A DNA stretch of 64,000 nt, taken from the NCBI GenBank assembly GCA_046757845.1, contig JBHHYZ010000003.1, positions 26,628 to 90,627 on the forward strand, written 5' to 3'. Position 1 is the stretch's first letter. Each line of letters starts with the position of its first letter. This DNA comes from Gemmatimonadota bacterium. GTDB lineage: Bacteria > Gemmatimonadota > Gemmatimonadetes > Palauibacterales > Palauibacteraceae. The notes beneath the pieces are model-generated. The model was not told the origin of the DNA and searched no databases. It saw only the letters and a program-made list of their open reading frames with translations. This document shows positions 21,907 to 40,136 of the stretch, in pieces. A program made the position numbers and the translations under genes.

Positions 21907-22004
21907 TGGCGGGAACGTGTGGGAATCGAACCCACCCAGGACGTTTCCGCGCCCCGTGACGGTTTTGAAGACCGCAGGCAACACCAGTCACCATCCGCTC
22001 CCGC
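21907..22004 (-). tRNA. selC: tRNA-Sec (selenocysteine tRNA, anticodon UCA)
   Basis: My own reverse complement gives GCGGGAGCGGATGG...GCGGTCTTCAAAACCGTC...GTGGGTTCGATTCCCACACGTTCCCGCCA. The anticodon loop CUUCAAA (UCA) is identical to E. coli selC; there is a T-loop GGTTCGATTCC and a long variable arm; about 98 nt. Confidence 0.7.
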
Positions 22005-26505: not shown

Positions 26506-26525
26506 TGGGAAAGAAATGAAATGAA

Positions 26526-26886
26526 TGGAGGCGGCGGGAATCGAACCCGCGTCCGCGAGCCCTTCCGCCACGGCATCTACGTGCGTAGCCAGGAGTCAGA
26601 ATCTCGCCACGGGACAGCCTCCAGGCTACCTCCCCGCGGCCAGCCGTCGGTCGGCTTGCGCCATCTCATCGCGGACGCCTACGGCGTGCGCCCACGACCA
26701 GCCCGATATCTCGTCGCCTTCCGGCCCGCCTCGGGCACGGCAAATCGGAAGACGGACCGCGTTAGTTACGCGGCCAGTGCCAAGTTGTCGTTGGCAGTTG
26801 AAATCTTTCCCGGTGTTTTACGAGGCCCCGGGACCTCGGCACGCTTCCGCAGCTTCTAGTTCACGCGTCGAAGCCGTATCGCCCCC
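26526..26886 (-). ncRNA. ssrA: tmRNA (SsrA), tag peptide ANDNLALAA, CCA not encoded
   Basis: My own rc gives 5' GGGGGCGATACGGCTTCGACG... and 3' ...GCGGGTTCGATTCCCGCCGCCTCCA. The acceptor pairs GGGGGCG with CGCCUCC through G3:U70. Tag ORF: GCC AAC GAC AAC TTG GCA CTG GCC GCG TAA. Confidence 0.85.
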
Positions 26887-28895: not shown

Positions 28896-29381
28896 CTAGC
28901 GAACCAGAAGCAGTCTCCGAACCTGAGCCTCTCCATCCACCAGGAGTTGTACGAAATACGGGCCCGGAGTAAGCTTCTTCCCCTGCAGGTCGCGCCCGTC
29001 CCACACCGCCTCGTAGGATCCTGGGCGAACGAAAGCCACCTGATCAAGCCGCCGCCCCGGCTTCCCGTCATTCCCGCTGAGCTTCGGCATGGCGACGAGT
29101 TGATGGAGGATGTTGTACACTCGCATCGACACGGTGACCGCATGCCCCTTTCGAAACAACGCTTCTCCGAGAATGAACGGCAGGCGTGTCTCCCTGTCGA
29201 ACGGGTTGGGAAAGGCCGGCTGCAGAGAGAAATCGGTTTCGTGCAGGCCCCTGATCCGTCCCCGCGCATCCTGGGCCACGGCGGCGTGGCCGCATGCCAG
29301 GAGCAGCACCAGGATAAGCGGAAAACCTCGCCGGGTCGCTCCCGCCCTCCGCGCGACCAGGCACTCAGCCGGCCAGCTCAC
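28896..29381 (-). CDS. small secreted protein with a T9SS/FlgD-Ig-like C-terminal sorting domain
   Basis: Signal peptide 'LILVLLLACGHAAVAQ'. 'FPNPFDRETRLPFIL...VTVSMRVYNILHQLVAM...YEAVWDGRDLQGKKLTPGPYFVQLLVDGEAQVRRLLLV' matches the Por-secretion C-terminal-domain pattern. Confidence 0.4.
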   Translation of the reverse strand: MSWPAECLVARRAGATRRGFPLILVLLLACGHAAVAQDARGRIRGLHETDFSLQPAFPNPFDRETRLPFILGEALFRKGHAVTVSMRVYNILHQLVAMPKLSGNDGKPGRRLDQVAFVRPGSYEAVWDGRDLQGKKLTPGPYFVQLLVDGEAQVRRLLLVR

Positions 29382-31284
29382 GTCCCTCTCCCGTGCGGCG
29401 CGTCACGCCCCGTCGATCCAGATACTCCAGGATCGGGATCAGGTACTTGCGGCTAACGCCGAACGCCTCCTTGAACACGCCGGGCGCCGCTACCCGCTCC
29501 CTCGCGAGCAGCTCCCGGGCTCGTGCGGCCAGCTCCTCCGCGAGCGCCGCTTGAAGATAGATCTCGGGCGTCAGCGCGACGATCTTCCCCTCTTCCTGGA
29601 GCAGCAGCAGCAGGTCCTGGAGCAGGTCGCGCTCCATCCGGAGAGTCCGTTCCAGGTCCGACAGGGTCTCGGGCTCCGCTCCGCCCGCGCGGATCGACTC
29701 CAGCAGGCGTTCCTGCTGCCTTCGTTCCTCATCCGTAAGCGCGGGTCGGTGATCCGGCAGACGAGCGCCGGGACCGTGGATCTCTACCCGCCCTGCCTCC
29801 GCCATGCGGGCCAGAACGTGGTCCACGAGCTCGTCGGCGAAGCGCCTTTTCCCGACCTCCTTGAGGGCCCCCAGCGACACGGCAGCCACCCGGCGCCGCT
29901 GTCGATGCAGCCGGCGAAGCTCACCTTCGAGGAACTCGGCCGCTTCCTCGGCTCGGCGGCTCGTGAACCACCGGTCCTTGACGCGAAGGAGACCGCTCAC
30001 CTCCCGCCCCAGCAATCCGGCCACTTCCTCTGACGGAAGTCCCGTCACCAGCGGCATTCTTGGAGTCTCGACCCCGCGGCCGCCGTGCAAGCCGACCGCC
30101 GCCACCAGCGCCTCCTCCGGGGAGCCATCCAGAATCCGCTTCCACTCCGCCAGGCTCTGGCGCCAGCCGCGGCCCGGCTGCAGCTGGGCGACCTGCCCGC
30201 CGCCCAGGGTGCAGACCGGCGAGTAGAAGCGGAGCACGAAGCGATCCTTCACGCGCGCTACCAGGGCCTCCTCGAGCCACAGCAGGGCCCAACCCCTCCG
30301 GCCCGGCTCCAACTCGCCGCCTTCCGGAAGCAGCACGCGCGCCATCACCTCTTTCGTTCCCAGATACACCCGTAGCCTGCGCTCGTGATCCACAGGTCGG
30401 CCCGCCCCCGCGAGCACCTCGATACGGACGCCCAGCCGGCGGCACTCCTCCCACACTTCGTCGCGCACGGCCACGGTGCCTCGTGGCACCCGCTGGGCCT
30501 GAACCCCCACCAGGGCCATGGCGCACCGCCGACCGGCTCCGACCGCTCGGCGCGCTTCCCCATGAACCTGAAGTCCCCGAACGCGAGCCCGCCGGCCCAG
30601 CGGCCATAGCAGGACCTCCTCCCCCGTCCTCACTTCGCCGCTCCACACGGTCCCGGTCACCACAGTCCCCGTCCCTCGAACGGAGAACGACCGGTCAATG
30701 GGCAGTCGGAACAGGTCATCCACCGGCCGATCCTTCACATCGCCGGCCGCCCCTTTCAGGGCCTCACGCAGCCCGACCATGCCTTCTCCCGTGGTGGAAG
30801 ATACCGGCAGGATCGGCCACTCCCCGTGGCCGAGTGTCCGCCGCAGCGCATCGCGCGTCGCCTCCCGAGCCAGATCGAGCCAGTCCTCATCCACCCTGTC
30901 CGCCTTGGTGAGCGCCACCACTCCACGGTTCACACCCAACAGCTTCGCGATGGACAGATGCTCGAACGTCTGCGGCATGGGCCCTTCATCCGCCGCAACC
31001 ACCAGCAGCAGAAGATCGATGCCCGTCGCGCCGGCCAGCATGTTCTTGAGGAAATCCTCGTGCCCCGGCACATCCACGACACCGGCCTCGATGCCGGTCC
31101 CCAGGCTCAAACGGGCGAACCCGATATCGATGGTCAGGCCCCGTTCCTTCTCTTCCTTCCACCGGTCCGTATCCACTCCGGTGAGCGCCCGGACGAGCGA
31201 TGTCTTGCCGTGGTCCACATGGCCGGCCGTACCCACCACGATGCCCTTCGGAGTCGCGCCGGGGCTTCGCTCGGATGGAGTCAC
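29365..31284 (-). CDS. selB: selenocysteine-specific translation elongation factor
   Basis: '[16 protein letters not shown]', 'DVPGHEDF' and 'LTKADRV' form the GTPase; the long C-terminal winged-helix region is typical of bacterial SelB; 639 aa. Confidence 0.85.
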
Positions 31285-32128: not shown

Positions 32129-33238
32129 CTAGCGGAGCGCGATGTCGGTCGAGCCGAACCCGGACGTGATGCTGGAGATCTCCGCTCCGTTGGAATCCAG
32201 CAGATACAGCCGCCCGGGTGCCGCGGTTGAGAAGGTGGCGCACAGGAGGCGGCCATCCGCCATGGCGGTCGCCACCCAGCACGCGATGTCCGCTCCGTTC
32301 ACGTCCACGGGCTGGATGGGATTGTCGGGTCCCCGTACCCAATCCCCGGTGGAAGGATTGAACATCAGCACCTGGATGCTCTGGAAGTCCAGAGTCGTCG
32401 TCACATAGACCCGGCCATTCTTTCCGGCTTCCAGGGACAGTCCGTTTCCGCCCAGCGGCAGGGTTTCGACGACCGCACTCGCCGACGGGCGGGTCTGGAC
32501 GAGCGTTCCATTGCCGACCGGCATGAAGTTCGCATCGAAACCGCCCGAAGCCATGACAGTGAGCCGATCTTCCGTGAAGATCGCATCCCGTGCGTTCACG
32601 CTGCCCGGCAGGGAGAATGCCGCCACCTGGAGACCGCTCGTGACATTGATCACGATGACGCGTGCATCCCCGAGGGGCTGAAATGTCCCTCCCTCGTCAT
32701 CGAGATTCGCGTCGACCAGAACCAGGACATTGCCACCCGGAAGCACCCGCTCCACGAACTCTCCGACATCCTGAGACACGAGAGAAGCGACGGCCTGATT
32801 CGGGGTGGCCCGGAACACCTGGTTGGTGCCGCGACCGGCCACCCACGCATTCACCTCCCCGGCGACGTTCACCGACAGCGTCGCCTTACCTGGATTGACG
32901 GCCGTACCCGCTCCCTGGAACGCGACCTGAAGCTGCGAACCGTTCTCCAGGCTACCGAAGATCAGCTGACTGCCGCCGAACGAGCTGATCGTGGTCACAA
33001 ACAGGGGAGAAAACACATCGATCGCATCCCCATCGAAGTTCTCGGGGAGCACGATGTCCGGAGCGGCGACGCTCAATCCCTCCCCGACCGAAAAGCGGCC
33101 GATCGTCTTCCCGACGGAATTGAGCACGAACACACTGCCGAAATCCGTCCTCGGCGGCGGATTGACTCCCGCGCTCGTGCCGCAGCCCGCGAGCGCGGCC
33201 AGTGAAGTCCCTGCGATGAGTGTTCGGACGAGTTTCAT
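32129..33238 (-). CDS. lipoprotein with beta-propeller-like repeats
   Basis: Lipobox 'LAALAGCGT'. Repeated 'G..V.V/..NG..' strands. It lies immediately downstream of the TonB-dependent receptor of the B12-riboswitch operon. Confidence 0.45.
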   Translation of the reverse strand: MKLVRTLIAGTSLAALAGCGTSAGVNPPPRTDFGSVFVLNSVGKTIGRFSVGEGLSVAAPDIVLPENFDGDAIDVFSPLFVTTISSFGGSQLIFGSLENGSQLQVAFQGAGTAVNPGKATLSVNVAGEVNAWVAGRGTNQVFRATPNQAVASLVSQDVGEFVERVLPGGNVLVLVDANLDDEGGTFQPLGDARVIVINVTSGLQVAAFSLPGSVNARDAIFTEDRLTVMASGGFDANFMPVGNGTLVQTRPSASAVVETLPLGGNGLSLEAGKNGRVYVTTTLDFQSIQVLMFNPSTGDWVRGPDNPIQPVDVNGADIACWVATAMADGRLLCATFSTAAPGRLYLLDSNGAEISSITSGFGSTDIALR

Positions 33239-35451
33239 CTCGGTCTCCTGTCTCGAGTCAAGCTACTCCCTGGTGTGGCTCTCGGCGACGCCCGCTCGCC
33301 GCGATGTGTCCGCTCCGGGGCCGCGAAGCTCAGGCGCATCTCCAGCCGGCGTCCCGGCTCGGGGAAAAGGGCTATCACTTCATAACGTCGATCCAGCAGG
33401 TTACGGATCCGCAACTCCGCGCGGAGCGGCAGGTCGCCCAGGTTCATCTCCTGCGTCGCGGACACGTCGACCAGACTGAAGGCGGGAAGATGGTGCGTGC
33501 CGGCCAGGGTCGTGGTTCGAGCGCCGGTGAGCGCCCACTCGGCCGTGAACACCCGGGAACCCACCCTTCTGGCCAGGTTTACCCGGGCGCGATGCCCCGG
33601 CTGGTACGGCAGCGACCGCTGGGTCGCTTCCGACGGGATGCGGCTTCGCGAGGCGCTACCCGCAAGCCCGATCCGCCACCCGCGAGCCGGGCGCCACCGG
33701 GCCTCCCACTCCAATCCCCGAGCGTTCAGCCGCTCCAGATTCCTAGGACTCCAGATGGCTACGCTACTGGCCAACCACACGATCGGATTCGCCGTACGCC
33801 GGGAATAGAAGCTCACGCGAGCCTGCAACGACCCGTTCTCCGCCTCCCATTCCGCTCCGAGCTCCGCATCCCGTCGGACCTTCTCGGCCCGGAGATCCGG
33901 GTTCGGCCGAACTCCGTAGGCCGCCGCAAAGTACAGATCGCTGAACGTCGGAAAGCGGAACGCCTGCCCGATTCTCCCCCACAACGTCCACCCGGAAGCC
34001 GGACGGCCGGTGAGCACGAGGCCGGGGCTCCACGACCGCTCGCCCGGCCCGAAATCCAGGGTCAAACTGGGCCGAATCTCGAACTGCGGGCCGCCGAAGG
34101 TTCGGGACACGGTAATCCCCGCGGACAACCGCGCCGGAGCCTTCCGAAGTCCGTCGCCGGAGACGGTCTCGCGCTCGGCGCGAAAGGACGCACGCCAGGC
34201 TCCGTTCCACCGCATCGTCCCGCGAAGCCGGAGGTCCGCCGCACGCTGGCGCTGGTCCGTGCCCGAGGCTGGATCTCGATACCGTAGCCACCGAGAACGG
34301 AACGCCCCCGACCACTCTCGAGAAGAACCCGTTCCGTACCGTACCGAGGCCTGGACGCCCCGGTCACTCCACCTGGCTCGATCGAACAGATCCGTGCCCA
34401 TGCGCCCCGGAGAACCCCGCTCGACCCGGCTGATTCTAAACCGGCCAGACAGGGGAAGGCGACGCGGAGACCCCGACAGCGCAACGTTCCATCCATGCGC
34501 GTCCGCGTTCTTCCGCACCTCGCGTGGCCGGCCCGGCGTCACCCGATCTCGGAAGGTGAAATCGTTGTCGCTGTCCTCCAGCCGACCACTCAGCGAGAGG
34601 ACGCCGGCCGACCCCTTCGAGGACAGGAACACGTCCGCCGCCCTTCGCCCGAAGGATCCTTTCTCTATCCCCCCCCGCCACATCCGGCCCTCCGGTTGAC
34701 GGGACCGAAGCAGGAGCACCCCCCCGAGGGCTCCGGAACCGTACTCCGCACCGGCTCCCGGGATGACCGTGGCCGACTCCAGCGTCGACCCCGGGATCCC
34801 GGAGAGGTCCGCTTCGCCCGAAACCGGATCGTTCACGGGCACTCCATCGAGCAGAACCAGCACTCCGGAAGGGCGACTGCCTCGCAGGCTGACCACCTGG
34901 CGCCCACCGGCCCCATACTCTCTCACCCCGACGCCGGGCAAGCCGCGCAGCCAGTCGGCGAGGGTGGACAGCTCCTGCTCCGCATGGGTGAAATCGAGAC
35001 GTTGCGCCGCGCGACCCGGCATCCACACCCACCCGCCCCGGTCCACCGTGGCCACCAGCTCCCGGACCACGAACGGGCGGGGCTGCAGAGTCAGCCTCAC
35101 ACGCACCCACTCTCCGGAGGCCACCCGAACGATCTTCTCCAACCGGGAATAGCCGGCGGCTTCGATGTCCAGGAGATAGCGGCCCGCCGCGACAGCCCGG
35201 TTGAGATACCGGCCATCGCCCAGCTCTTCGACCGCCCACGTGAATGCTTCCTTCCTCCGGAGGTCCGGCTCTCCCTCACCGCGGATCGGGCGCGGGACCC
35301 GAAGTGTCACTCGCGCGCCCTCGATCGGTCTGCCGGCCCCCTCAAGCTCCACAACCACCGCACCGGGCCGGGCCGGTGGCAGAGGCGGTTCCTGGGCCGA
35401 GAGCGGACCGGCCGAAAGAGCCACCCGAGCGACCAGCGTGAGGCAGATGAC
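33235..35451 (-). CDS. TonB-dependent outer-membrane receptor (BtuB-like by context)
   Basis: Signal peptide, CarbopepD_reg-like N-terminus, plug ('VVSLRGSRPSGVLVLLDGVPVND') and a 22-strand barrel. The start is uncertain (around 35451). 29 residues follow the expected terminal '...EMRLSF'. Confidence 0.75.
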   Translation of the reverse strand, partial: VICLTLVARVALSAGPLSAQEPPLPPARPGAVVVELEGAGRPIEGARVTLRVPRPIRGEGEPDLRRKEAFTWAVEELGDGRYLNRAVAAGRYLLDIEAAGYSRLEKIVRVASGEWVRVRLTLQPRPFVVRELVATVDRGGWVWMPGRAAQRLDFTHAEQELSTLADWLRGLPGVGVREYGAGGRQVVSLRGSRPSGVLVLLDGVPVNDPVSGEADLSGIPGSTLESATVIPGAGAEYGSGALGGVLLLRSRQPEGRMWRGGIEKGSFGRRAADVFLSSKGSAGVLSLSGRLEDSDNDFTFRDRVTPGRPREVRKNADAHGWNVALSGSPRRLPLSGRFRISRVERGSPGRMGTDLFDRARWSDRGVQASVRYGTGSSREWSGAFRSRWLRYRDPASGTDQRQRAADLRLRGTMRWNGAWRASFRAERETVSGDGLRKAPARLSAGITVSRTFGGPQFEIRPSLTLDFGPGERSWSPGLVLTGRPASGWTLWGRIGQAFRFPTFSDLYFAAAYGVRPNPDLRAEKVRRDAELGAEWEAENGSLQARVSFYSRRTANPIVWLASSVAIWSPRNLERLNARGLEWEARWRPARGWRIGLAGSASRSRIPSEATQRSLPYQPGHRARVNLARRVGSRVFTAEWALTGARTTTLAGTHHLPAFSLVDVSATQEMNLGDLPLRAELRIRNLLDRRYEVIALFPEPGRRLEMRLSFAAPERTHRGERASPRATPGSSLTRDRRPR

Positions 35452-35522
35452 GGGCAGAGTCCGGGCCGCTCGTGTCTCGCCCGGTCGATCCGGGCCCGAT
35501 CGCCGCCCTATCGCCCGCCGTC

Positions 35523-36323
35523 TCACTCCCGCCCCCACCCGCTCAACGGCACGGCGTGGAAGCCCAGAGCCCCCAGCTCCACGACTCTGATCGGCCAACC
35601 GAACGCTTCGCTCAGGTGCTCCGCCTGCAACACTTCGTGCGGGGAGCCCACCACCACGAGACGCCCCTCGGACAGAAGTGCCAGCGAATCTCCGTAACGA
35701 CTGGCCAGGTGCAGGTCGTGCGTGATGCTCACCACGGTCAGCCGATCCGCTCGGATCAATTCCCGAACCAGCTCGAACATCCGGACCTGGTGTCCCAGAT
35801 CCAGATGCGCGGTGGGCTCATCGAGCAGAAGCACCGACGGCTCCTGGGCCAGGGCTCGCGCCAGCTTCGCCCTCTGCCGCTCTCCTCCGGAGAGATCCGG
35901 GAGGAATCGCTCGGCCAGGTGTCGGAGGTCGACCCGATCGAGCGAGGCTTCGATCACCTCCCGATCCCTCGTCCCCAGACCCTGCCAGGTCCGCAGATGC
36001 GGATTGCGGCCGAGTCCGACAAACGCCCGCAGCGGCAGGGGAAAACCGGGAGGATCGTCCTGCGTCACGACGGCCACCCGGCATGCCAGTTCCCTCCGGC
36101 CCCAGTCCGACAGGCCTCGCCCGAACAATCGAACCTGTCCACGATCCGGCCTCAGAACTCCCGACATCAGGCGCAGGAGAGTGCTCTTTCCCGCCCCGTT
36201 CGGCCCCACCAACATGCTGTGCCGGCCCATGGCGAAACGCAGGGACGTCCCCGCGATGGCGGGACGGCCGCCTCCCGGATACGAGAAGCGCACTTCCGTC
36301 AGATCGAAGGCTGCCTCCACGCT
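35523..36323 (-). CDS. ABC transporter ATP-binding protein, FecE/BtuD family
   Basis: 'GPNGAGKSTLL', 'LSGGERQRAKLARALAQEP' and 'LLLDEPTAHLD'. GTG start at 36323 overlaps the permease stop. Confidence 0.8.
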   Translation of the reverse strand, partial: SVEAAFDLTEVRFSYPGGGRPAIAGTSLRFAMGRHSMLVGPNGAGKSTLLRLMSGVLRPDRGQVRLFGRGLSDWGRRELACRVAVVTQDDPPGFPLPLRAFVGLGRNPHLRTWQGLGTRDREVIEASLDRVDLRHLAERFLPDLSGGERQRAKLARALAQEPSVLLLDEPTAHLDLGHQVRMFELVRELIRADRLTVVSITHDLHLASRYGDSLALLSEGRLVVVGSPHEVLQAEHLSEAFGWPIRVVELGALGFHAVPLSGWGRE

Positions 36324-37333
36324 CACACCGAGCTCCTCCGAAGCAGGAAGAGAAAGAACGGCACTCCGACGAGAGCGGTGATCACCCCGATGGGAACCTC
36401 CAGCGGGCTGGCGACCGTGCGAGCGGCCGTGTCGGCCAGACCCAAGAGGGCAGCTCCGCCCAGAAAGGAGAGGGGGAGAACCAGCCGGTGGTCGGCGCCC
36501 CAGAGAAGCCGCACCGTGTGAGGCACAACCAGGCCCACGAAACCCACCACTCCCGCCACCGCTACGGCGGCCGCGGCGAGCGCGGAAGCGAGGAAGTACG
36601 CTCGACGCTTGGCTCGCTCCACATCGGTGCCCAGATGGGCCGCCGCTTCTTCGCCCAGCGCGAGCGCGTTCAGATCCCGAGACATCCCGAACGCGATCGC
36701 CGAGGCCGGGAGAGCGTAGGCCAGAAGCGCCAGGTCCGTGCCCCACGATGCGCCTGCCAGGCTTCCCATCGTCCACAGGACGGCCGAGCGGAGCGCTTCC
36801 CCCTCCGCGAAAGTGAGCAGCAGCATCACGCAGGCACCGAAGAACGAAGCGACCACGACGCCGGCCAGGATCAAGACCCTCGTATCCAGCTTTCCGACCA
36901 CGCTGGCGACCCGAAACACCACTCCGACGGCCAGGATCGCTCCGGCCAGCGAGGCCAGGGTCAGGAAGGCGGGGCCGAGCGACCCGAGCCCCAACGTGAT
37001 CGCCGCCACCGCGCCCAGCGCGGCGCCCGAGGAGACCCCCAGCAGGTACGGCTCCGCCAACGGATTGCGCAGCAGCGCCTGGAACAGTGCGCCGGACACG
37101 GCCAAGCTGGCGCCGGTGGCCAGCGCACCCACGGTTCTGGGAAGCCTCAGACTCAGGAGGATCGAGCGCGCCGTGGAAGGCTCCGCCCCAGGCATCAGGG
37201 CCCGCCACAATTCCGCGGGAGAGAAGCCGGCCGGTCCCAGCAAGACACCGCTCGAGCCCGCCAGGAGAACCAGCCCGAGAAGCCAGGCCGCGCCGCTTTT
37301 CCCCGGCAGAACCTGCCCTCTCGTCCTACTCAT
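36323..37333 (-). CDS. FecCD/BtuC family ABC permease
   Basis: Polytopic; 'GLVVPHTVRLLWGADHRLVLPLSFLGGAALLGLAD' is the FecCD signature. Confidence 0.8.
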   Translation of the reverse strand: MSRTRGQVLPGKSGAAWLLGLVLLAGSSGVLLGPAGFSPAELWRALMPGAEPSTARSILLSLRLPRTVGALATGASLAVSGALFQALLRNPLAEPYLLGVSSGAALGAVAAITLGLGSLGPAFLTLASLAGAILAVGVVFRVASVVGKLDTRVLILAGVVVASFFGACVMLLLTFAEGEALRSAVLWTMGSLAGASWGTDLALLAYALPASAIAFGMSRDLNALALGEEAAAHLGTDVERAKRRAYFLASALAAAAVAVAGVVGFVGLVVPHTVRLLWGADHRLVLPLSFLGGAALLGLADTAARTVASPLEVPIGVITALVGVPFFLFLLRRSSV

Positions 37334-38324
37334 CGCGGGAACACGTGGAACTCGGGTCAGCCCCCACCTCCGGGATCCCGTCGATCGCGGCGGCGGGGTG
37401 GAGCGCTCGGGCCAGTTCCAGCGCACCTGCCACGATCCCCGGGCCCAGCACGTGAACCCGATCCCCATTCACCCGGCGGACGGCGCCGCGGCGGACCGCG
37501 CCGATCGCCCGCCAGCCCGGCCGAGCCTCCGGCGGGGAGCGCCGGTCGCCGGTTCGGGTCACCGGCCAAAGGATGAGCTGGGGATCCCGCGCGGCGATCG
37601 CTTCCAAGCTGACCTGCGGCGAGACGGCCTCCAGGTCGCCGAACACGTTGCGTCCGCCGGCGATCGCGAGCAGCGAGTCCAGATAGCTGGCCTTCCCGAC
37701 CGTGATCGGCGGATCCGACCACACGTCGTAGTACACCCGCGTGGCCCCCAAGCCGGCGGTCGCCTCGTGGACCGCCTTCAGACCACGCTCGATCGCGGCC
37801 GCAAGCCGGGACGCGGCTGCCTCGCATCCGATCAGAACACCCAGGCGCCGCAGGTTGCGGTTCAGATCCGCCAAGCTGTTGTGCGCAAGGCCCAGCGACG
37901 GCACCCCCACACGCCGTAGCGCGGCGCCCAACCCGGCATTGTCCGAGCCCGCGAAGAACAGCACCACATCCGGTCGTCGAGCCAACACGAGCTCAACAGA
38001 AGGACGAACTCCGTCCCCAATACTCGGGACGGCCCGCGCGGCTTCGGGTCTGGTCCCGAAACGCGTGCGGCCCACCAGCCGATCCCCCGCTCCCATGGCG
38101 AAGAGGATCTCGGTGAACGCCGGCGACAGAGACACGATTCGCCGGGCGGGCGCGGCCAACCTGACCAGATGGTTCAGATCGTCCCGGACCCGCACGGTGT
38201 CGGTCCACGCCCCGATGGCTTCCCGGCCCGACTCGAGAGTCCGCGCGACTTCCACCGCCGGGACGCCTCGAGGGATCAGGCAGCCGATCGCTGCCAGAAC
38301 AACACAACGCAACCAGAGAATCAA
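37326..38324 (-). CDS. periplasmic substrate-binding protein, BtuF/FhuD class (Peripla_BP_2)
   Basis: Signal peptide; 'IVSLSPAFTEILFAMGAGDRLVG' and 'PDVVLFFAGS' are typical of cobalamin/siderophore binding proteins. The TTG start sits directly behind the riboswitch terminator. Confidence 0.75.
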   Translation of the reverse strand: MILWLRCVVLAAIGCLIPRGVPAVEVARTLESGREAIGAWTDTVRVRDDLNHLVRLAAPARRIVSLSPAFTEILFAMGAGDRLVGRTRFGTRPEAARAVPSIGDGVRPSVELVLARRPDVVLFFAGSDNAGLGAALRRVGVPSLGLAHNSLADLNRNLRRLGVLIGCEAAASRLAAAIERGLKAVHEATAGLGATRVYYDVWSDPPITVGKASYLDSLLAIAGGRNVFGDLEAVSPQVSLEAIAARDPQLILWPVTRTGDRRSPPEARPGWRAIGAVRRGAVRRVNGDRVHVLGPGIVAGALELARALHPAAAIDGIPEVGADPSSTCSRDE

Positions 38325-38349
38325 AAAGCCCGCCTCCTGTGGGGCGGGC
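38323..38349 (-). terminator. intrinsic terminator (riboswitch expression platform)
   Basis: Minus-strand RNA: GCCCGCC-ccacagga-GGCGGGC-UUUUUG. The U-tract overlaps the TTG start. Confidence 0.5.
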
Positions 38350-38399
38350 TCATCGGGCCTCTAACGAATCCCGCCCACACCCTTCCTTCGAAGAGCTCT

Positions 38400-38520
38400 C
38401 GTGGGCCTGGATGGGACACGTCTCCTGGCTCGAGGCACCGTCGAAACGGTGAGCCTCTTACAGTGGCGAGGCCGCGCCGGACTCACACCGGCTTCCGTTT
38501 GCCTCCATCCGTTCTGTCGA
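38400..38520 (-). promoter_or_regulatory. cobalamin (B12) riboswitch aptamer
   Basis: Minus-strand RNA contains GGAAGCCGGUGUGAGUCCGGCGCGGCCUCGCCACUGUAAGAGG (the GGAA...GGUG..A.UCC...GCCACUGU core) followed by GAGCCAGGAGACGUGUCC (B12-box-like AGCCAGGAGAC). Confidence 0.55.
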
Positions 38521-38584
38521 TTCCGAGTCTACTCCAGACCTGCGGGCACCGCAAGGCGAGGCGTGGCTCGGACACCTCGTCCAT

Positions 38585-39499
38585 TCAGCCCGCCGCAGCC
38601 AGCCGGCGGCGCGCGACCTCGGCCGCACTCAGCAGCAGGAAGCCGGCCGCGACGAAGATCCAGGCATAGAAGCTATGGGAGGGTGGCGGACCGAAGTCCA
38701 TCGACAGGGTTGCCGGGGTTCCCCGGCTCACGTACCGCTGGAACGTGCGACCCTCGATCTCGATGAGGCCGCCGAACTGGAGACCGCGAAGGCGGGAGGG
38801 TCGGTTGGAGCCAGCGACCAACACCTCCCGTTTCCCCTCCTCACCGGGCGCGGGCAAGTCGATCCTGTCGGCTGCGATCCGGTAGCGAACCGTCAGGGGC
38901 CGCCCTCCCGGGGGGACCGGTGCGCGAACTTGGACGAAGCTCCCGTCCACCTCATCTTCGCCGGCCAGGGCCGAGCCAGGCACCAGGCTCGGCTCGACCG
39001 CCTCACGGGGAAGCGGTAGCCGCCAGCCCTCCGCATCGCTCTTTCCAGGGACGAGCGTCAGGTCGGAGTCGTTGGCCAACTCCCACACGTCTACCACGTC
39101 GAGCAGGCCGGGACGCGGCGATACGATCGTGTGCCGTGACGCGACCGCCACGGTGTCAGCTCGGCGAGCGTCGTATACGACGATCCGGTAGTCCTGGATC
39201 GACTCGGGAGTGCCGTGGAGAGCGCGGCCCATGTACAGCACATTCTGATAGCGGGCGGTGGCCAGTAGGACCGGCGGAGGGCGTCCCGGTTCGGACCTCG
39301 GGCTCGGCACGGTGAAGGCGAAGCGGCCATTCCGCCCCGTCACCGACGTCGCCAGCACCGATCCCGAATCCGCCGTGATCCGGTGGAGATCGACCGTGAT
39401 CCCCCGCACGGCGGAAGAGTCCGTGCCTCTCACGACACGGCCGGAAATCCTCAGCGGAGGCGGAGACTGCGCGAGGGCCGGAGAGCCGAGGATCATCGG
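38585..39499 (-). CDS. carboxypeptidase-regulatory-like domain protein with C-terminal TM anchor (hypothetical)
   Basis: Signal peptide 'MILGSPALAQ'; 'ISGRVVRGTDSSAVRGITVDL...TGRNGRFAF' is CarbopepD_reg; C-terminal hydrophobic helix. Confidence 0.4.
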   Translation of the reverse strand, partial: PMILGSPALAQSPPPLRISGRVVRGTDSSAVRGITVDLHRITADSGSVLATSVTGRNGRFAFTVPSPRSEPGRPPPVLLATARYQNVLYMGRALHGTPESIQDYRIVVYDARRADTVAVASRHTIVSPRPGLLDVVDVWELANDSDLTLVPGKSDAEGWRLPLPREAVEPSLVPGSALAGEDEVDGSFVQVRAPVPPGGRPLTVRYRIAADRIDLPAPGEEGKREVLVAGSNRPSRLRGLQFGGLIEIEGRTFQRYVSRGTPATLSMDFGPPPSHSFYAWIFVAAGFLLLSAAEVARRRLAAAG

Positions 39500-39587
39500 A
39501 ATGAGCAAGCCGCCGCCGGCCCGGATCGCCGTCCACCCAGCCCAGCGGCTCAACGCCCCGGGCCGCGGCCGGCGGCGGCCGAACGAT

Positions 39588-40136
39588 TCAGGGGTTGAAC
39601 CGCCCAAAATCTTCCGGATTCAGCTTCCGCAGATACTCCCTGAGCGGTTCTCCGGAGGGCGAGCCGGGATCCGCGGCCTCCAGCTCACCCTGGCCCGATT
39701 CCTCCGGGAGCTCGAAACCGGCTCCCTCGATCTCGAGGCTGGTCAGCTCCAGCAAGTCTTCATCGGCGAAGATCGGTGCCTGCGCGCGCAGCGCCAGCGC
39801 GATGCTGTCGCTGGGCCGGGAGTCAATGGACAGCAATTCTCCATCCCGTTTGAAGATCAGCGACGCGTAGTAGGTATTGTCCACCACTTTGGTGATCAGC
39901 ACCCGCACCAGCGCGCTGCCCAAGCCGCGCACCACGGTGTCGAACAGATCGTGCGTGAGCGGGCGTGAGAATTGAACCCCCGCCAGCTCCATGGCGATGG
40001 CGCTGGCCTCTCCCGGTCCGATCCAGATCGGGAGCAAACGGTCCCCGTCCTTCTCCTTGAGGATGACGACCGGCGTGCTCGAGGACTTGTCCAGCCCGAG
40101 GCTCGCGACCGTGACCTCCGTCAGCCCATCTTCCAT
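39588..40136 (-). CDS. bifunctional nuclease (BFN/DUF151) family protein
   Basis: 'PVVILKEKDGDRLLPIWIGPGEASAI...RPLTHDL' is the BFN domain signature. Confidence 0.6.
   Translation of the reverse strand: MEDGLTEVTVASLGLDKSSSTPVVILKEKDGDRLLPIWIGPGEASAIAMELAGVQFSRPLTHDLFDTVVRGLGSALVRVLITKVVDNTYYASLIFKRDGELLSIDSRPSDSIALALRAQAPIFADEDLLELTSLEIEGAGFELPEESGQGELEAADPGSPSGEPLREYLRKLNPEDFGRFNP

Follow-up and report, generated by a model that had tools for sequence, protein, structure and literature searches.

For the corrinoid riboswitch of Priestia megaterium metE, which represses at the level of transcription, the interplay of P13, antiterminator and terminator has been proven by mutagenesis (Kennedy et al. 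2023, PMC10327014). In this RNA an internal loop makes P13 weaker than the antiterminator, and the terminator is composed of a hairpin followed by a U-tract (PMC10327014). The riboswitches of E. coli btuB and env8HyCbl act on translation (Johnson 2012, Polaski 2016, PMC5028336). They control B12 uptake genes, combine a four-way-junction aptamer with an L5-L13 kissing loop whose loop-loop helix contains an unpaired nucleotide, and occlude the RBS in a ligand-dependent manner; in env8 the RBS lies within L13 itself. The B12 loci of Bacteroides thetaiotaomicron, arranged as riboswitch-btuB-btuG-btuFCD, unite a riboswitch with a TonB-dependent receptor, an adjacent propeller lipoprotein and BtuFCD (Wexler 2018, PMC6143338; Abellon-Ruiz 2023, PMC10404256). 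Here, we analysed a stretch of 64,000 nucleotides from a Gemmatimonadota bacterium (the window), whose minus strand carries a B12 uptake operon. This operon is very probably governed by a functional, repressing cobalamin riboswitch in which P13 and a kissing loop control a hairpin sequestering the Shine-Dalgarno (SD) sequence.

An initial annotation, made from the letters of the window, had claimed a cobalamin riboswitch at this place and suggested a search with the Rfam model RF00174 (Cobalamin; clan CL00101). The search with cmscan bore out this claim: a significant match was obtained on the minus strand at 38398-38547, which covered the full model (1-189) and scored 54.5 bits (E 8.5e-11) against a gathering score of 31.5. 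RF00174 matched at the same position in 10 of 11 tested relatives. All motifs that had been quoted were found on the minus strand, namely the core ACGGAAGCCGGUGUGAGUCCGGCGCGGCCUCGCCACUGUAAG (38498-38457), the B12 box AGCCAGGAGAC (38420-38430), which was also recognised by RF00174 and occupies invariant columns in alignment A2, the hairpin and the U-run. The aptamer, as delimited by the RF00174 score and by covariation, extends from P1 to P1' (38409-38510, minus strand) and lies in the 5' leader directly upstream of the btuF-like gene, a position that is kept in relatives. Its P1 is formed by GGAUGG(A)GGC (38510-38501) and GUC-CCAUCC (38417-38409), P3 by CG/CG and P5 by GG/CC, while P4 (38492-38476) carries the T-loop-like L4 UGUGAGU and P6 together with a short extension hairpin of 28 nt occupies 38464-38431. 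The conserved core is thus present, with GGAA-P4 and its GGUG..CC loop, GCCACUG and the P3-P6 four-way junction that is also found in E. coli btuB and env8HyCbl. Judged by its sequence, the RNA is a genuine B12 riboswitch and a typical representative of a well-known family.

The comparison with RF00174 revealed some peculiarities. The RNA shares the B12 box, GGAA..GGUG..CC (J3/4-P4), GCCACUG and P6 with its extension, but it lacks a P2 hairpin, its P1 is shorter than that of the model and its L5 reads CCUCG. The P6 extension is limited to the 28-nt hairpin, whereas it comprises 50-100 nt in many relatives. With an extension this short, the RNA may be selective for either adenosyl- or methyl/hydroxo-cobalamin. 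The P1 proposed by the Rfam alignment itself (GGUCUGGAGUAGA, 38541-38529) was rejected, as it contained three mismatches, had a low posterior probability and overlapped a conserved element resembling -35 and -10 boxes. In relatives, P1 is located nearer to the core than in the Rfam alignment, and the true P1 is the one given above. The promoter-like element (38526-38554, minus strand) consists of a -35 box TTGCGG (38554-38549), a 17-nt spacer and a -10 box TAGACT (38531-38526); in 39 of 60 relatives, a corresponding motif, TTGC..-17/18 nt-TA...T, stands equally far from the aptamer core. The first 28 nt or so of the Rfam match (38547-38520) fall within this element and are probably not transcribed. 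From the position of these boxes we infer a transcription start near 38520.

Covariation was evaluated in 59 Gemmatimonadota leaders. In total, 90.5% of the paired cells were complementary. After shuffling the figure was 81.2%, and none of 500 shuffles came up to the observed one; with slid partners it did not exceed 51%. Changes on both sides were seen in 25 of 38 pairs. Such changes occurred in 10 of 11 pairs of P1, 2 of 5 of P4 and 4 of 4 of P6, and they were also found in a further hairpin, P13, in 4 of 5 pairs of the outer and 3 of 5 pairs of the inner stem. P13 (38373-38406, minus strand; -15.5 kcal/mol) is built from an outer stem GCCCAC/GUGGGC, a 5' bulge GAGA(G) and an inner stem CUCUU/AAGGG, and is topped by the loop L13 CGAAGG (38390-38385). 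Its sequence and position are kept in all 59 aligned relatives. The initial annotation had described the aptamer and the hairpin at the end of the leader, but had missed P13 and the L5-L13 kissing loop between them, so that its picture of the switch was incomplete.

The aptamer loop L5 (38467-38471, minus strand) reads CCUCG in the window and CCCCG in relatives. The family combination of L5 CCCCG with L13 CG(N)GGG permits five base pairs with a bulge of one nucleotide, which corresponds to the unpaired nucleotide in the loop-loop helix of E. coli btuB and env8HyCbl. In the window, CCUCG is combined with CG(A)AGG, whereas the three closest BtuF relatives combine CCCCG with CGAGGG or CGCGGG. A single double change from G-C to A-U (U38469 with A38387) thus sets the window apart from these three, a natural compensatory change in its kissing loop. 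In the alignment, 98.3% of the L5-L13 cells were paired. Two further loci, L055 and L068, have UCCCG together with an altered L13 (CGGAGAA and CGGAGCA, respectively); the aligned columns restore the pair in L055 only, and L068 needs a shifted register, which was read by eye. The covariation of the kissing loop therefore amounts to two or three independent events only. On this comparative evidence, L13 pairs with L5 of the aptamer. When metagenome contigs were searched for CCUCG-type riboswitches with the 16-nt pattern GCGGCCTCGCCACTGT, no riboswitch was found among the matches listed, at least 120 in number, which were coding-sequence matches in G+C-rich genomes.

The leader ends with the hairpin GAGCCCGCC-CCACAGGA-GGCGGGCUU (38326-38351, minus strand), which has nine pairs, seven of them G-C, and a loop of eight nucleotides. 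It was detected by a terminator scan, folds at -19.9 kcal/mol and is followed by UUUUUGAUU. As described in the initial annotation, the hairpin GCCCGCC-N8-GGCGGGC, a run of five U's and an abutting UUG start are all present. The U5 tract (38323-38327, minus strand) is one of only four runs of at least five T's on both strands of the window, and its U-rich tail goes on (UUUUUGAUUCUCU). A pairing of the hairpin loop (CCACAGGA) with UGUGAGU was considered and dropped, as UGUGAGU is the T-loop L4 and the true L5 is CCUCG. The hairpin also contains the SD sequence AGGAGG (38333-38338, minus strand), of which four bases lie in the loop and two in the 3' arm, and which is separated from the downstream UUG at 38324 by 8 nt. 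SD-like purine motifs occupy the same place in relatives, and a hairpin containing the SD ahead of the start codon is nearly universal among 63 Gemmatimonadota relatives. Regulatory hairpins in these relatives were chosen by a constrained search, and a few start assignments there are uncertain; a choice by lowest energy was rejected, as it picked hairpins of the coding region in several loci. The final hairpin is at least an RBS sequestor. This arrangement differs from env8 in that some 60 nt lie between L13 and the start, while the RBS is part of a separate downstream hairpin with a terminator tail. RBS occlusion, which depends on the ligand in E. coli btuB and env8HyCbl, would presumably do so in the window as well.

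The gene behind this leader (37326-38324, minus strand) encodes a BtuF-like substrate-binding protein of 332 amino acids with matches to Peripla_BP_2 (E 1.5e-25) and to BtuF and TroA-like NCBIfam families. Its start codon UUG (38324-38322) is made of the last two U's of the U5 run and G38322. The position of the start codon inside the terminator tail had raised the concern that the true start was unclear, and this concern is largely settled: no in-frame start codon lies between the preceding stop and UUG 38324, the SD stands at a suitable distance from it, the identical 332-aa protein of the NCBI record begins there as well, and the exact hairpin-UUUUG layout was found in 17 of the 63 relatives. 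Since both the hairpin-SD and the hairpin-UUUUG layouts recur in relatives, UUG 38324 is the real start. UUG served as start codon in 21 of 26 loci with a U-run, compared with 10 of 37 other loci; the layout explains the frequent UUG starts of btuF-like genes, and annotators should not shift such starts downstream. An upstream open reading frame of 10 codons (AUG38353-UGA38321) reaches across the hairpin and overlaps with the UUG; it was regarded as fortuitous, since it was found in only 1 of 53 loci.

No antiterminator had been seen in the initial annotation, which had proposed RNA folding as a means to look for alternative pairing. Such a pairing is available between the 3' side of P13 and the 5' arm of the final hairpin. 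Its 5' arm GUG.GGGCGGG.UUCGUU (38380-38363, minus strand) overlaps the 3' side of P13, and its 3' arm GAUGAG.CCCGCCC.CAC (38354-38339, minus strand) overlaps the 5' arm and the loop of the terminator/sequestor hairpin. The resulting helix of 16 bp has a folding energy of -24.8 kcal/mol and is more stable than P13. An antiterminator stronger than P13 is what the P. megaterium metE model requires (PMC10327014). The pairing between the 3' side of P13 and the 5' arm of the hairpin was predicted in 48 of 52 relatives compared with 61% of composition-matched shuffles; much of the complementarity thus results from base composition, with G prevailing in one strand and C/U in the other. In 49 of the 52 relatives, antiterminator-type pairing was 5.4 kcal/mol better than in composition-matched shuffles. 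Calculated with nearest-neighbour energies, the whole leader favours its OFF fold (-99.4 kcal/mol) over its ON fold (-87.3 kcal/mol) even without ligand, so that the switch must be controlled kinetically, unless the real ON state is unlike the modelled one. Equilibrium folding of the whole leader reproduced no ON state and was considered uninformative on its own.

Taken together, these elements suggest a relay of three hairpins under an OFF switch. The RNA would begin near 38520 and fold into the aptamer (38510-38409), which would bind a corrinoid. Binding would favour kissing of L5 (CCUCG) with L13 (CGAAGG) and lock P13 (38406-38373); with its 3' side held, the GC-rich hairpin (38351-38326) could form, bury AGGAGG and block initiation at UUG 38324. 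As the U5 tract follows directly, the hairpin would probably act as an intrinsic terminator too. Transcripts that terminate would then stop within codons 1-3 of btuF, and those that are read through could still be switched at the level of translation. Without ligand, P13 would not be reinforced and its 3' side would pair with the 5' arm and loop of the final hairpin; this antiterminator and anti-sequestor would allow read-through by RNA polymerase and expose the SD and the UUG. Such a dual control of transcription and translation is the reading we favour, with somewhat better than even confidence for the complete statement. The relay is common to this leader and to P. megaterium metE (PMC10327014), a difference being that the terminator hairpin of the window also holds the SD and that the start codon is taken from the U-tract, for which reason this hairpin should block translation as well. 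Furthermore, metE is controlled in P. megaterium, whereas the genes presumably controlled in the window encode transporters, and the host is a Gram-negative Gemmatimonadota bacterium. For the riboswitch field the result is mainly a confirmation, as a logic recently proven in Bacillota would also be used by a little-studied phylum known mostly from MAGs. In addition, the leader would provide a clean natural example of a terminator and an RBS sequestor fused into one hairpin with the start codon inside the U-tract.

The question whether the final hairpin terminates transcription at all deserves closer consideration. It could serve solely as RBS sequestor, with the U-run as an unstructured, U-rich spacer or standby site (e.g. 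for ribosomal protein S1) by which initiation at a weak UUG is facilitated in a genome of 67% G+C, and with secondary changes at the mRNA level brought about by Rho or decay. There is precedent for cobalamin riboswitches that act on translation and affect mRNA abundance secondarily (PMC5028336). The conserved feature in this family is the SD-containing hairpin, and 37 of the 63 relatives have no U-run, so that the family can regulate without termination. The window shows no enrichment of canonical terminators either; its terminator-like sites other than the final hairpin were at chance level and no commoner than in shuffles. Moreover, as the SD lies inside the hairpin, the spacer between SD and start has to abut it, and U's beside the stem are not diagnostic by themselves. 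Against purely translational control stands the exact geometry of an intrinsic terminator, with seven consecutive G-C pairs, U5 directly thereafter and U at 6 of the next 9 bases; within 60 kb of the window, the hairpin was the best terminator-like site. A run of at least four T's ending at the start codon was found in 26 of the 63 relatives and in only 0.64% of background 15-nt windows, an enrichment of about 60-fold. In the window and in relatives U-richness extends into codons 2-3 (UUUUGUUUUU, UUUUGAUUUUU), which a spacer does not require, and the leader has all the parts, P13, antiterminator and terminator, of a corrinoid switch whose action on transcription is proven. We therefore regard control by translation alone as unlikely, albeit the most serious competitor of dual control.

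The opposite extreme, regulation by termination alone with an incidental position of the SD, is how the initial annotation had interpreted the locus. The canonical appearance of the intrinsic terminator supports the transcriptional part of this interpretation, as do the antiterminator, which cannot coexist with the terminator and surpasses P13 in strength, and the analogy to P. megaterium metE. Its restriction to attenuation is too narrow, because the SD-sequestering hairpin is conserved and the U-run is limited to 26 of the 63 relatives. Since AGGAGG belongs to the loop and 3' arm and UUG begins one base past the stem, an RNA with the folded hairpin would also be blocked in translation, and relatives without U-run keep both P13 and the SD-containing hairpin, which must therefore regulate translation in those relatives. 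Pure attenuation thus appears quite improbable. Hardly credible is an activating switch, in which P13 stabilised by ligand would expose the SD instead of hiding it and of which A. halodurans cobT is an example among corrinoid riboswitches, or a relic with a kissing loop disabled by the change of L5 to CCUCG, since L5 and L13 of the window both deviate from the family consensus but do so in a complementary manner (U-A) that keeps the loop-loop helix, P13 and the final hairpin are compatible while the antiterminator competes with both, as in a repressing layout, and B12, to our knowledge, represses uptake operons in all characterised cases.

The genes downstream of btuF (32129-37468, minus strand) are those listed in the initial annotation, and their order is kept in relatives. 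They encode a btuC-like FecCD permease (up to 37468-36323), a btuD-like ABC ATPase (ABC_tran; about 36380-35523), a TonB-dependent receptor (35598-33235) and, immediately downstream of the receptor as last gene of the operon, a lipoprotein of 369 amino acids (33238-32129). The receptor carries an N-terminal CarboxypepD_reg domain, which is common in the FCB group. The signal peptide of the lipoprotein contains a lipobox cysteine (MKLVRTLIAGTSLAALAGC). Searches with the lipoprotein gave no Pfam, NCBIfam or PDB sequence match and no detectable sequence homology to BtuG. In structure prediction, it was modelled as a putative 7-bladed propeller that may resemble Bacteroides BtuG, with 9-15% identity in structural alignments. 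The operon and the B. thetaiotaomicron B12 loci (PMC6143338, PMC10404256) have a riboswitch, a TonB-dependent receptor, an adjacent lipoprotein (a possible propeller in the window) and BtuFCD in common; the gene order differs, as btuFCD comes first in the window. Assignment to the regulon places this unannotated, conserved putative propeller protein in B12 uptake. If it binds B12, surface capture of the BtuG type would not be exclusive to Bacteroidota, contrary to the 2018 report. We tentatively propose, at somewhat less than even confidence, the broader picture of one hairpin that is both terminator and RBS sequestor, with UUG selected from the U's of its tail across Gemmatimonadota, and that governs capture by a Bacteroidota-style receptor and a possibly BtuG-like lipoprotein. 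In 30 of 80 loci, homologues of the lipoprotein occupy the corresponding place in the operon, and Cys19 was nearly invariant in 37 homologues.

A search of the 64-kb window with Rfam release 15 revealed a single cobalamin riboswitch, matched by RF00174 at 38398-38547 (-) with 54.5 bits (E 8.5e-11) against a gathering score of 31.5 bits. The element is a member of this family, and the minus-strand match named as a check in the initial annotation was thus found. Every detail observed there was borne out, namely the conserved core (...ACGGAAGCCGGUGUGAGUCCGGCGCGGCCUCGCCACUGUAAGAGGC..., 38498-38453, minus strand, 5'->3'), the B12 box (AGCCAGGAGAC, 38430-38420, minus strand, 5'->3'), the hairpin, the U-tract and the downstream genes. 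Rfam placed a long P1 on GGUCUGGAGUAGA; mismatches, low posterior probability and the covarying P1 strands of relatives just outside the core (CAUGGA/UCCAUG, CAGGGA/UCCCUG and GCGAAC/GUUCGC) argue against this as the true P1, which in the window consists of GGAUGG(A)GGC (38510-38501, minus strand) and GUC-CCAUCC (38417-38409, minus strand). At a fixed distance upstream of P1, 39 of 60 leaders carry the motif TTGC..-17/18 nt-TA...T, and its copy in the window (TTGCGG-17 nt-TAGACT, 38554-38526, minus strand) suggests a promoter from which transcription would begin near 38520; if so, the 5' portion of the Rfam match represents a DNA signal and not RNA. The P6 extension comprises 28 nt in the window and some relatives and 50-100 nt in others. 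The corrinoid selectivity of the window riboswitch cannot be read from its sequence.

For comparison, 80 Gemmatimonadota loci were fetched via an alignment of BtuF-like homologues (A1). In most of them a B12 core precedes the conserved protein part by about 250-350 nt, and RF00174 matched at this position in 10 of 11 relatives tested (52-79 bits). A subgroup of five loci (L008, L014, L015, L016, L023) has a shortened L4 with GGAUGAGCC or GGACGAGCC replacing GGUG...CC; L008 falls below the gathering score, yet its B12 box, P13 and L13 are all kept. Gene order is kept across the phylum: a 340-aa gene, the leader, btuF, btuC, btuD, with or without receptor and lipoprotein, then recO. The 340-aa gene (38585-39607 (-) in the window) is syntenic with the leader in 42/80 loci and gave no family match apart from a weak CarboxypepD_reg hint (E 0.008). 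In L001, L005, L009, L012, L017, L022 and L025 it extends to btuF and the B12 box is absent; in all of these except L001 and L005, recO follows btuF directly, without btuCD. Some lineages seem to have lost the riboswitch along with some of the operon genes.

In every relative, P1 is followed immediately by a hairpin of conserved sequence (38406-38373, minus strand, in the window), which reads GCCCAC..CUCUUCGCGGGAAGGG..GUGGGC in one clade and CGCCAC..CCUCGGGGGAGG..GGUGGCG in Gemmatimonadaceae. A hand-drawn structure was scored on an alignment of 59 leaders (A2) in which the variable P6 interior was replaced by NNNN. Paired cells amounted to 90.5% compared with 81.2% in column shuffles, none of 500 reaching the observed value, and to at most 51% when partners were slid; both sides had changed in 25 of 38 pairs, with 4 of 5 in the outer and 3 of 5 in the inner stem of this hairpin. 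It is the P13 of the cobalamin riboswitch literature, whose loop L13 pairs with the aptamer loop L5 on ligand binding, a one-nucleotide bulge in the kissing loop reportedly conferring ligand dependence (PMC10907184; PMC5028336). L5 is CCCCG in 56/59 aligned leaders, the exceptions being the window and the relatives L055 and L068; L071 has CCCCA. Together with the L13 sequence of Gemmatimonadota leaders, CG(N)GGG with N variable, five base pairs with a one-nucleotide bulge are possible. The window carries CCUCG in L5 (38471-38467, minus strand) and CGAAGG in L13 (38390-38385, minus strand), while the three relatives nearest to it in BtuF, retrieved separately, combine CCCCG with CGAGGG or CGCGGG; the window departs from them by just one double change, from G-C to A-U (U38469 with A38387). 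In L055 and L068, L5 is UCCCG and L13 is altered too (CGGAGAA and CGGAGCA); the changed pair is restored in the alignment columns for L055 only, L068 needing a shifted register read by eye.

The final hairpin (GAGCCCGCC-CCACAGGA-GGCGGGCUU, 38351-38326, minus strand) was listed by the terminator scan with nine pairs (seven G-C) and an 8-nt loop, and is followed on the same strand by UUUGAUUCUC (5'->3'). Besides its U-tract, the window has only three further T>=5 runs, counting both strands, and the hairpin outranks every other terminator-like site in 60 kb; elsewhere such sites occur at chance level (9 found vs 7.8 expected, 9 vs 9.2, 11 vs 7.2). The Shine-Dalgarno sequence AGGAGG (38338-38333, minus strand) runs from the hairpin loop into the 3' arm, taking up the first two pairs there, and lies 8 nt from the UUG, so that the folded hairpin must block initiation. 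Across relatives, for some of which start assignments are uncertain, a hairpin that contains the SD and ends 0-10 nt upstream of the start is the norm, the U-run being facultative. Two Gemmatimonadaceae leaders (L056, L063) lack an SD hairpin between P13 and the btuF start and carry CTATCGCT/CAATCGCT-like short tandem repeats after P13, reaching about 180 nt in L063. A T>=4 run within the 15 nt ending at the start codon was found in 26/63 loci, compared with 0.64% of background 15-nt windows (loci at 68% G+C), and 17/63 share the precise hairpin-UUUUG arrangement seen in the window. Both major clades contain U-run loci, and U-richness continues into codons 2-3. UUG starts occur in 21 of the 26 U-run loci and in 10 of the other 37; we read UUG as the start codon best tolerated by a U-tract. 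We likewise read ribosome binding site sequestration as the conserved core function, to which a predicted intrinsic terminator has been added in some of the phylum, and in the window as well. The initially proposed transcription-attenuation type therefore stands in part: hairpin and U-tract look like a canonical terminator and a competing antiterminator is predicted, but the SD lies inside the hairpin, sequestration is the conserved core and only 26/63 loci have the U-run. A purely translational switch, in which the U-run would serve as unstructured spacer, is in our view less likely.

The alternative anti-terminator pairing, a folding check suggested in the initial annotation, was found between the 3' side of P13 with its following bases (GUG.GGGCGGG.UUCGUU, 38380-38363, minus strand) and GAUGAG.CCCGCCC.CAC (38354-38339, minus strand), which covers the final hairpin's 5' arm and some of its loop. 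Its predicted energy is -24.8 kcal/mol, compared with -15.5 for P13 and -19.9 for the final hairpin; the latter two are compatible with each other but not with the alternative helix. When the relatives were folded after deletion of the P13 5' side and the final hairpin's 3' arm, at least 5 nt of the hairpin 5' arm paired with the P13 3' side in the minimum-energy fold of 48/52 loci. Composition-matched shuffles of the P13 side gave this pairing in 61% of trials, and the native pairing was on average 5.4 kcal/mol more stable (49/52 loci); the complementarity is therefore real, composition accounting for part of it. The P13 3' side (GGGAAGGG or GGGGGAGG) is Shine-Dalgarno-like and the hairpin 5' arm is an anti-SD. 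Minimum-energy folding of the whole leader, with no ligand term, favoured OFF (final hairpin folded, -99.4 kcal/mol) over ON (-87.3 kcal/mol), so that the outcome must be decided kinetically, as is usual among transcriptional riboswitches. Within 38300-38365 (-), the minimum-energy structure pairs the UUG start together with codons 2-4 (UCUCUGG, 38319-38313) with CGA and UUAGAGG further upstream (38364-38353), which would lengthen the sequestor hairpin by about 10 pairs.

In the P. megaterium metE corrinoid riboswitch, whose model was established by disrupting and restoring base pairs (Kennedy et al., PMC10327014), the antiterminator must exceed P13 in stability, and P13 is weakened by an internal loop. 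We propose from sequence that P13, alternative helix and final hairpin of the window would work likewise and would in addition occlude the ribosome binding site, as E. coli btuB and env8 do. Placing the predicted terminator and the sequestor within a single hairpin, and the start codon within its U-tract, is a variation in layout and no new mechanism.

The reading frame from UUG 38324 encodes a 332-aa Peripla_BP_2 protein. A Gemmatimonadota MAG at NCBI has an identical protein in its annotation, and the public record therefore uses the same start, directly at the hairpin as initially noted. A 10-codon uORF (AUG AGC CCG CCC CAC AGG AGG CGG GCU UUU UGA, 38321-38353 (-)) covers the entire terminator hairpin, its UGA overlapping the UUG start (UUGA); occurring in 1/53 leaders, it is probably fortuitous. 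As initially described, genes for a FecCD permease, an ABC ATPase, a TonB-dependent receptor and a 369-aa lipoprotein follow on the same strand. Beyond them lie recO and selB.

The lipoprotein (33238-32129, minus strand; signal MKLVRTLIAGTSLAALAGC) has no sequence match in Pfam, NCBIfam or PDB, and homologues occupy the same operon position in 30/80 loci. Its AlphaFold2 model, built with 37 homologues, is a seven-bladed propeller (pLDDT 92). The top 15 entries of a Foldseek search against PDB are all Bacteroides BtuG-family structures (E ~1e-10, TM 0.60-0.69), 14 of them cobalamin-bound or BtuB-BtuG complexes, plus 3DSM; two structure searches differ on how specific this likeness is. BtuG has been described as exclusive to Bacteroidetes (PMC6143338). 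Predicted fold and operon context make the lipoprotein a candidate BtuG-like protein, for which a B12-capturing role is a reasonable hypothesis. The window also encodes a tRNA-Sec (21911-22002 (-), 74.5 bits), a tmRNA (26523-26886 (-), 150.7 bits) and the SelB elongation factor (29365-31284 (-)); tRNA-Sec and SelB together indicate that the organism uses selenocysteine.
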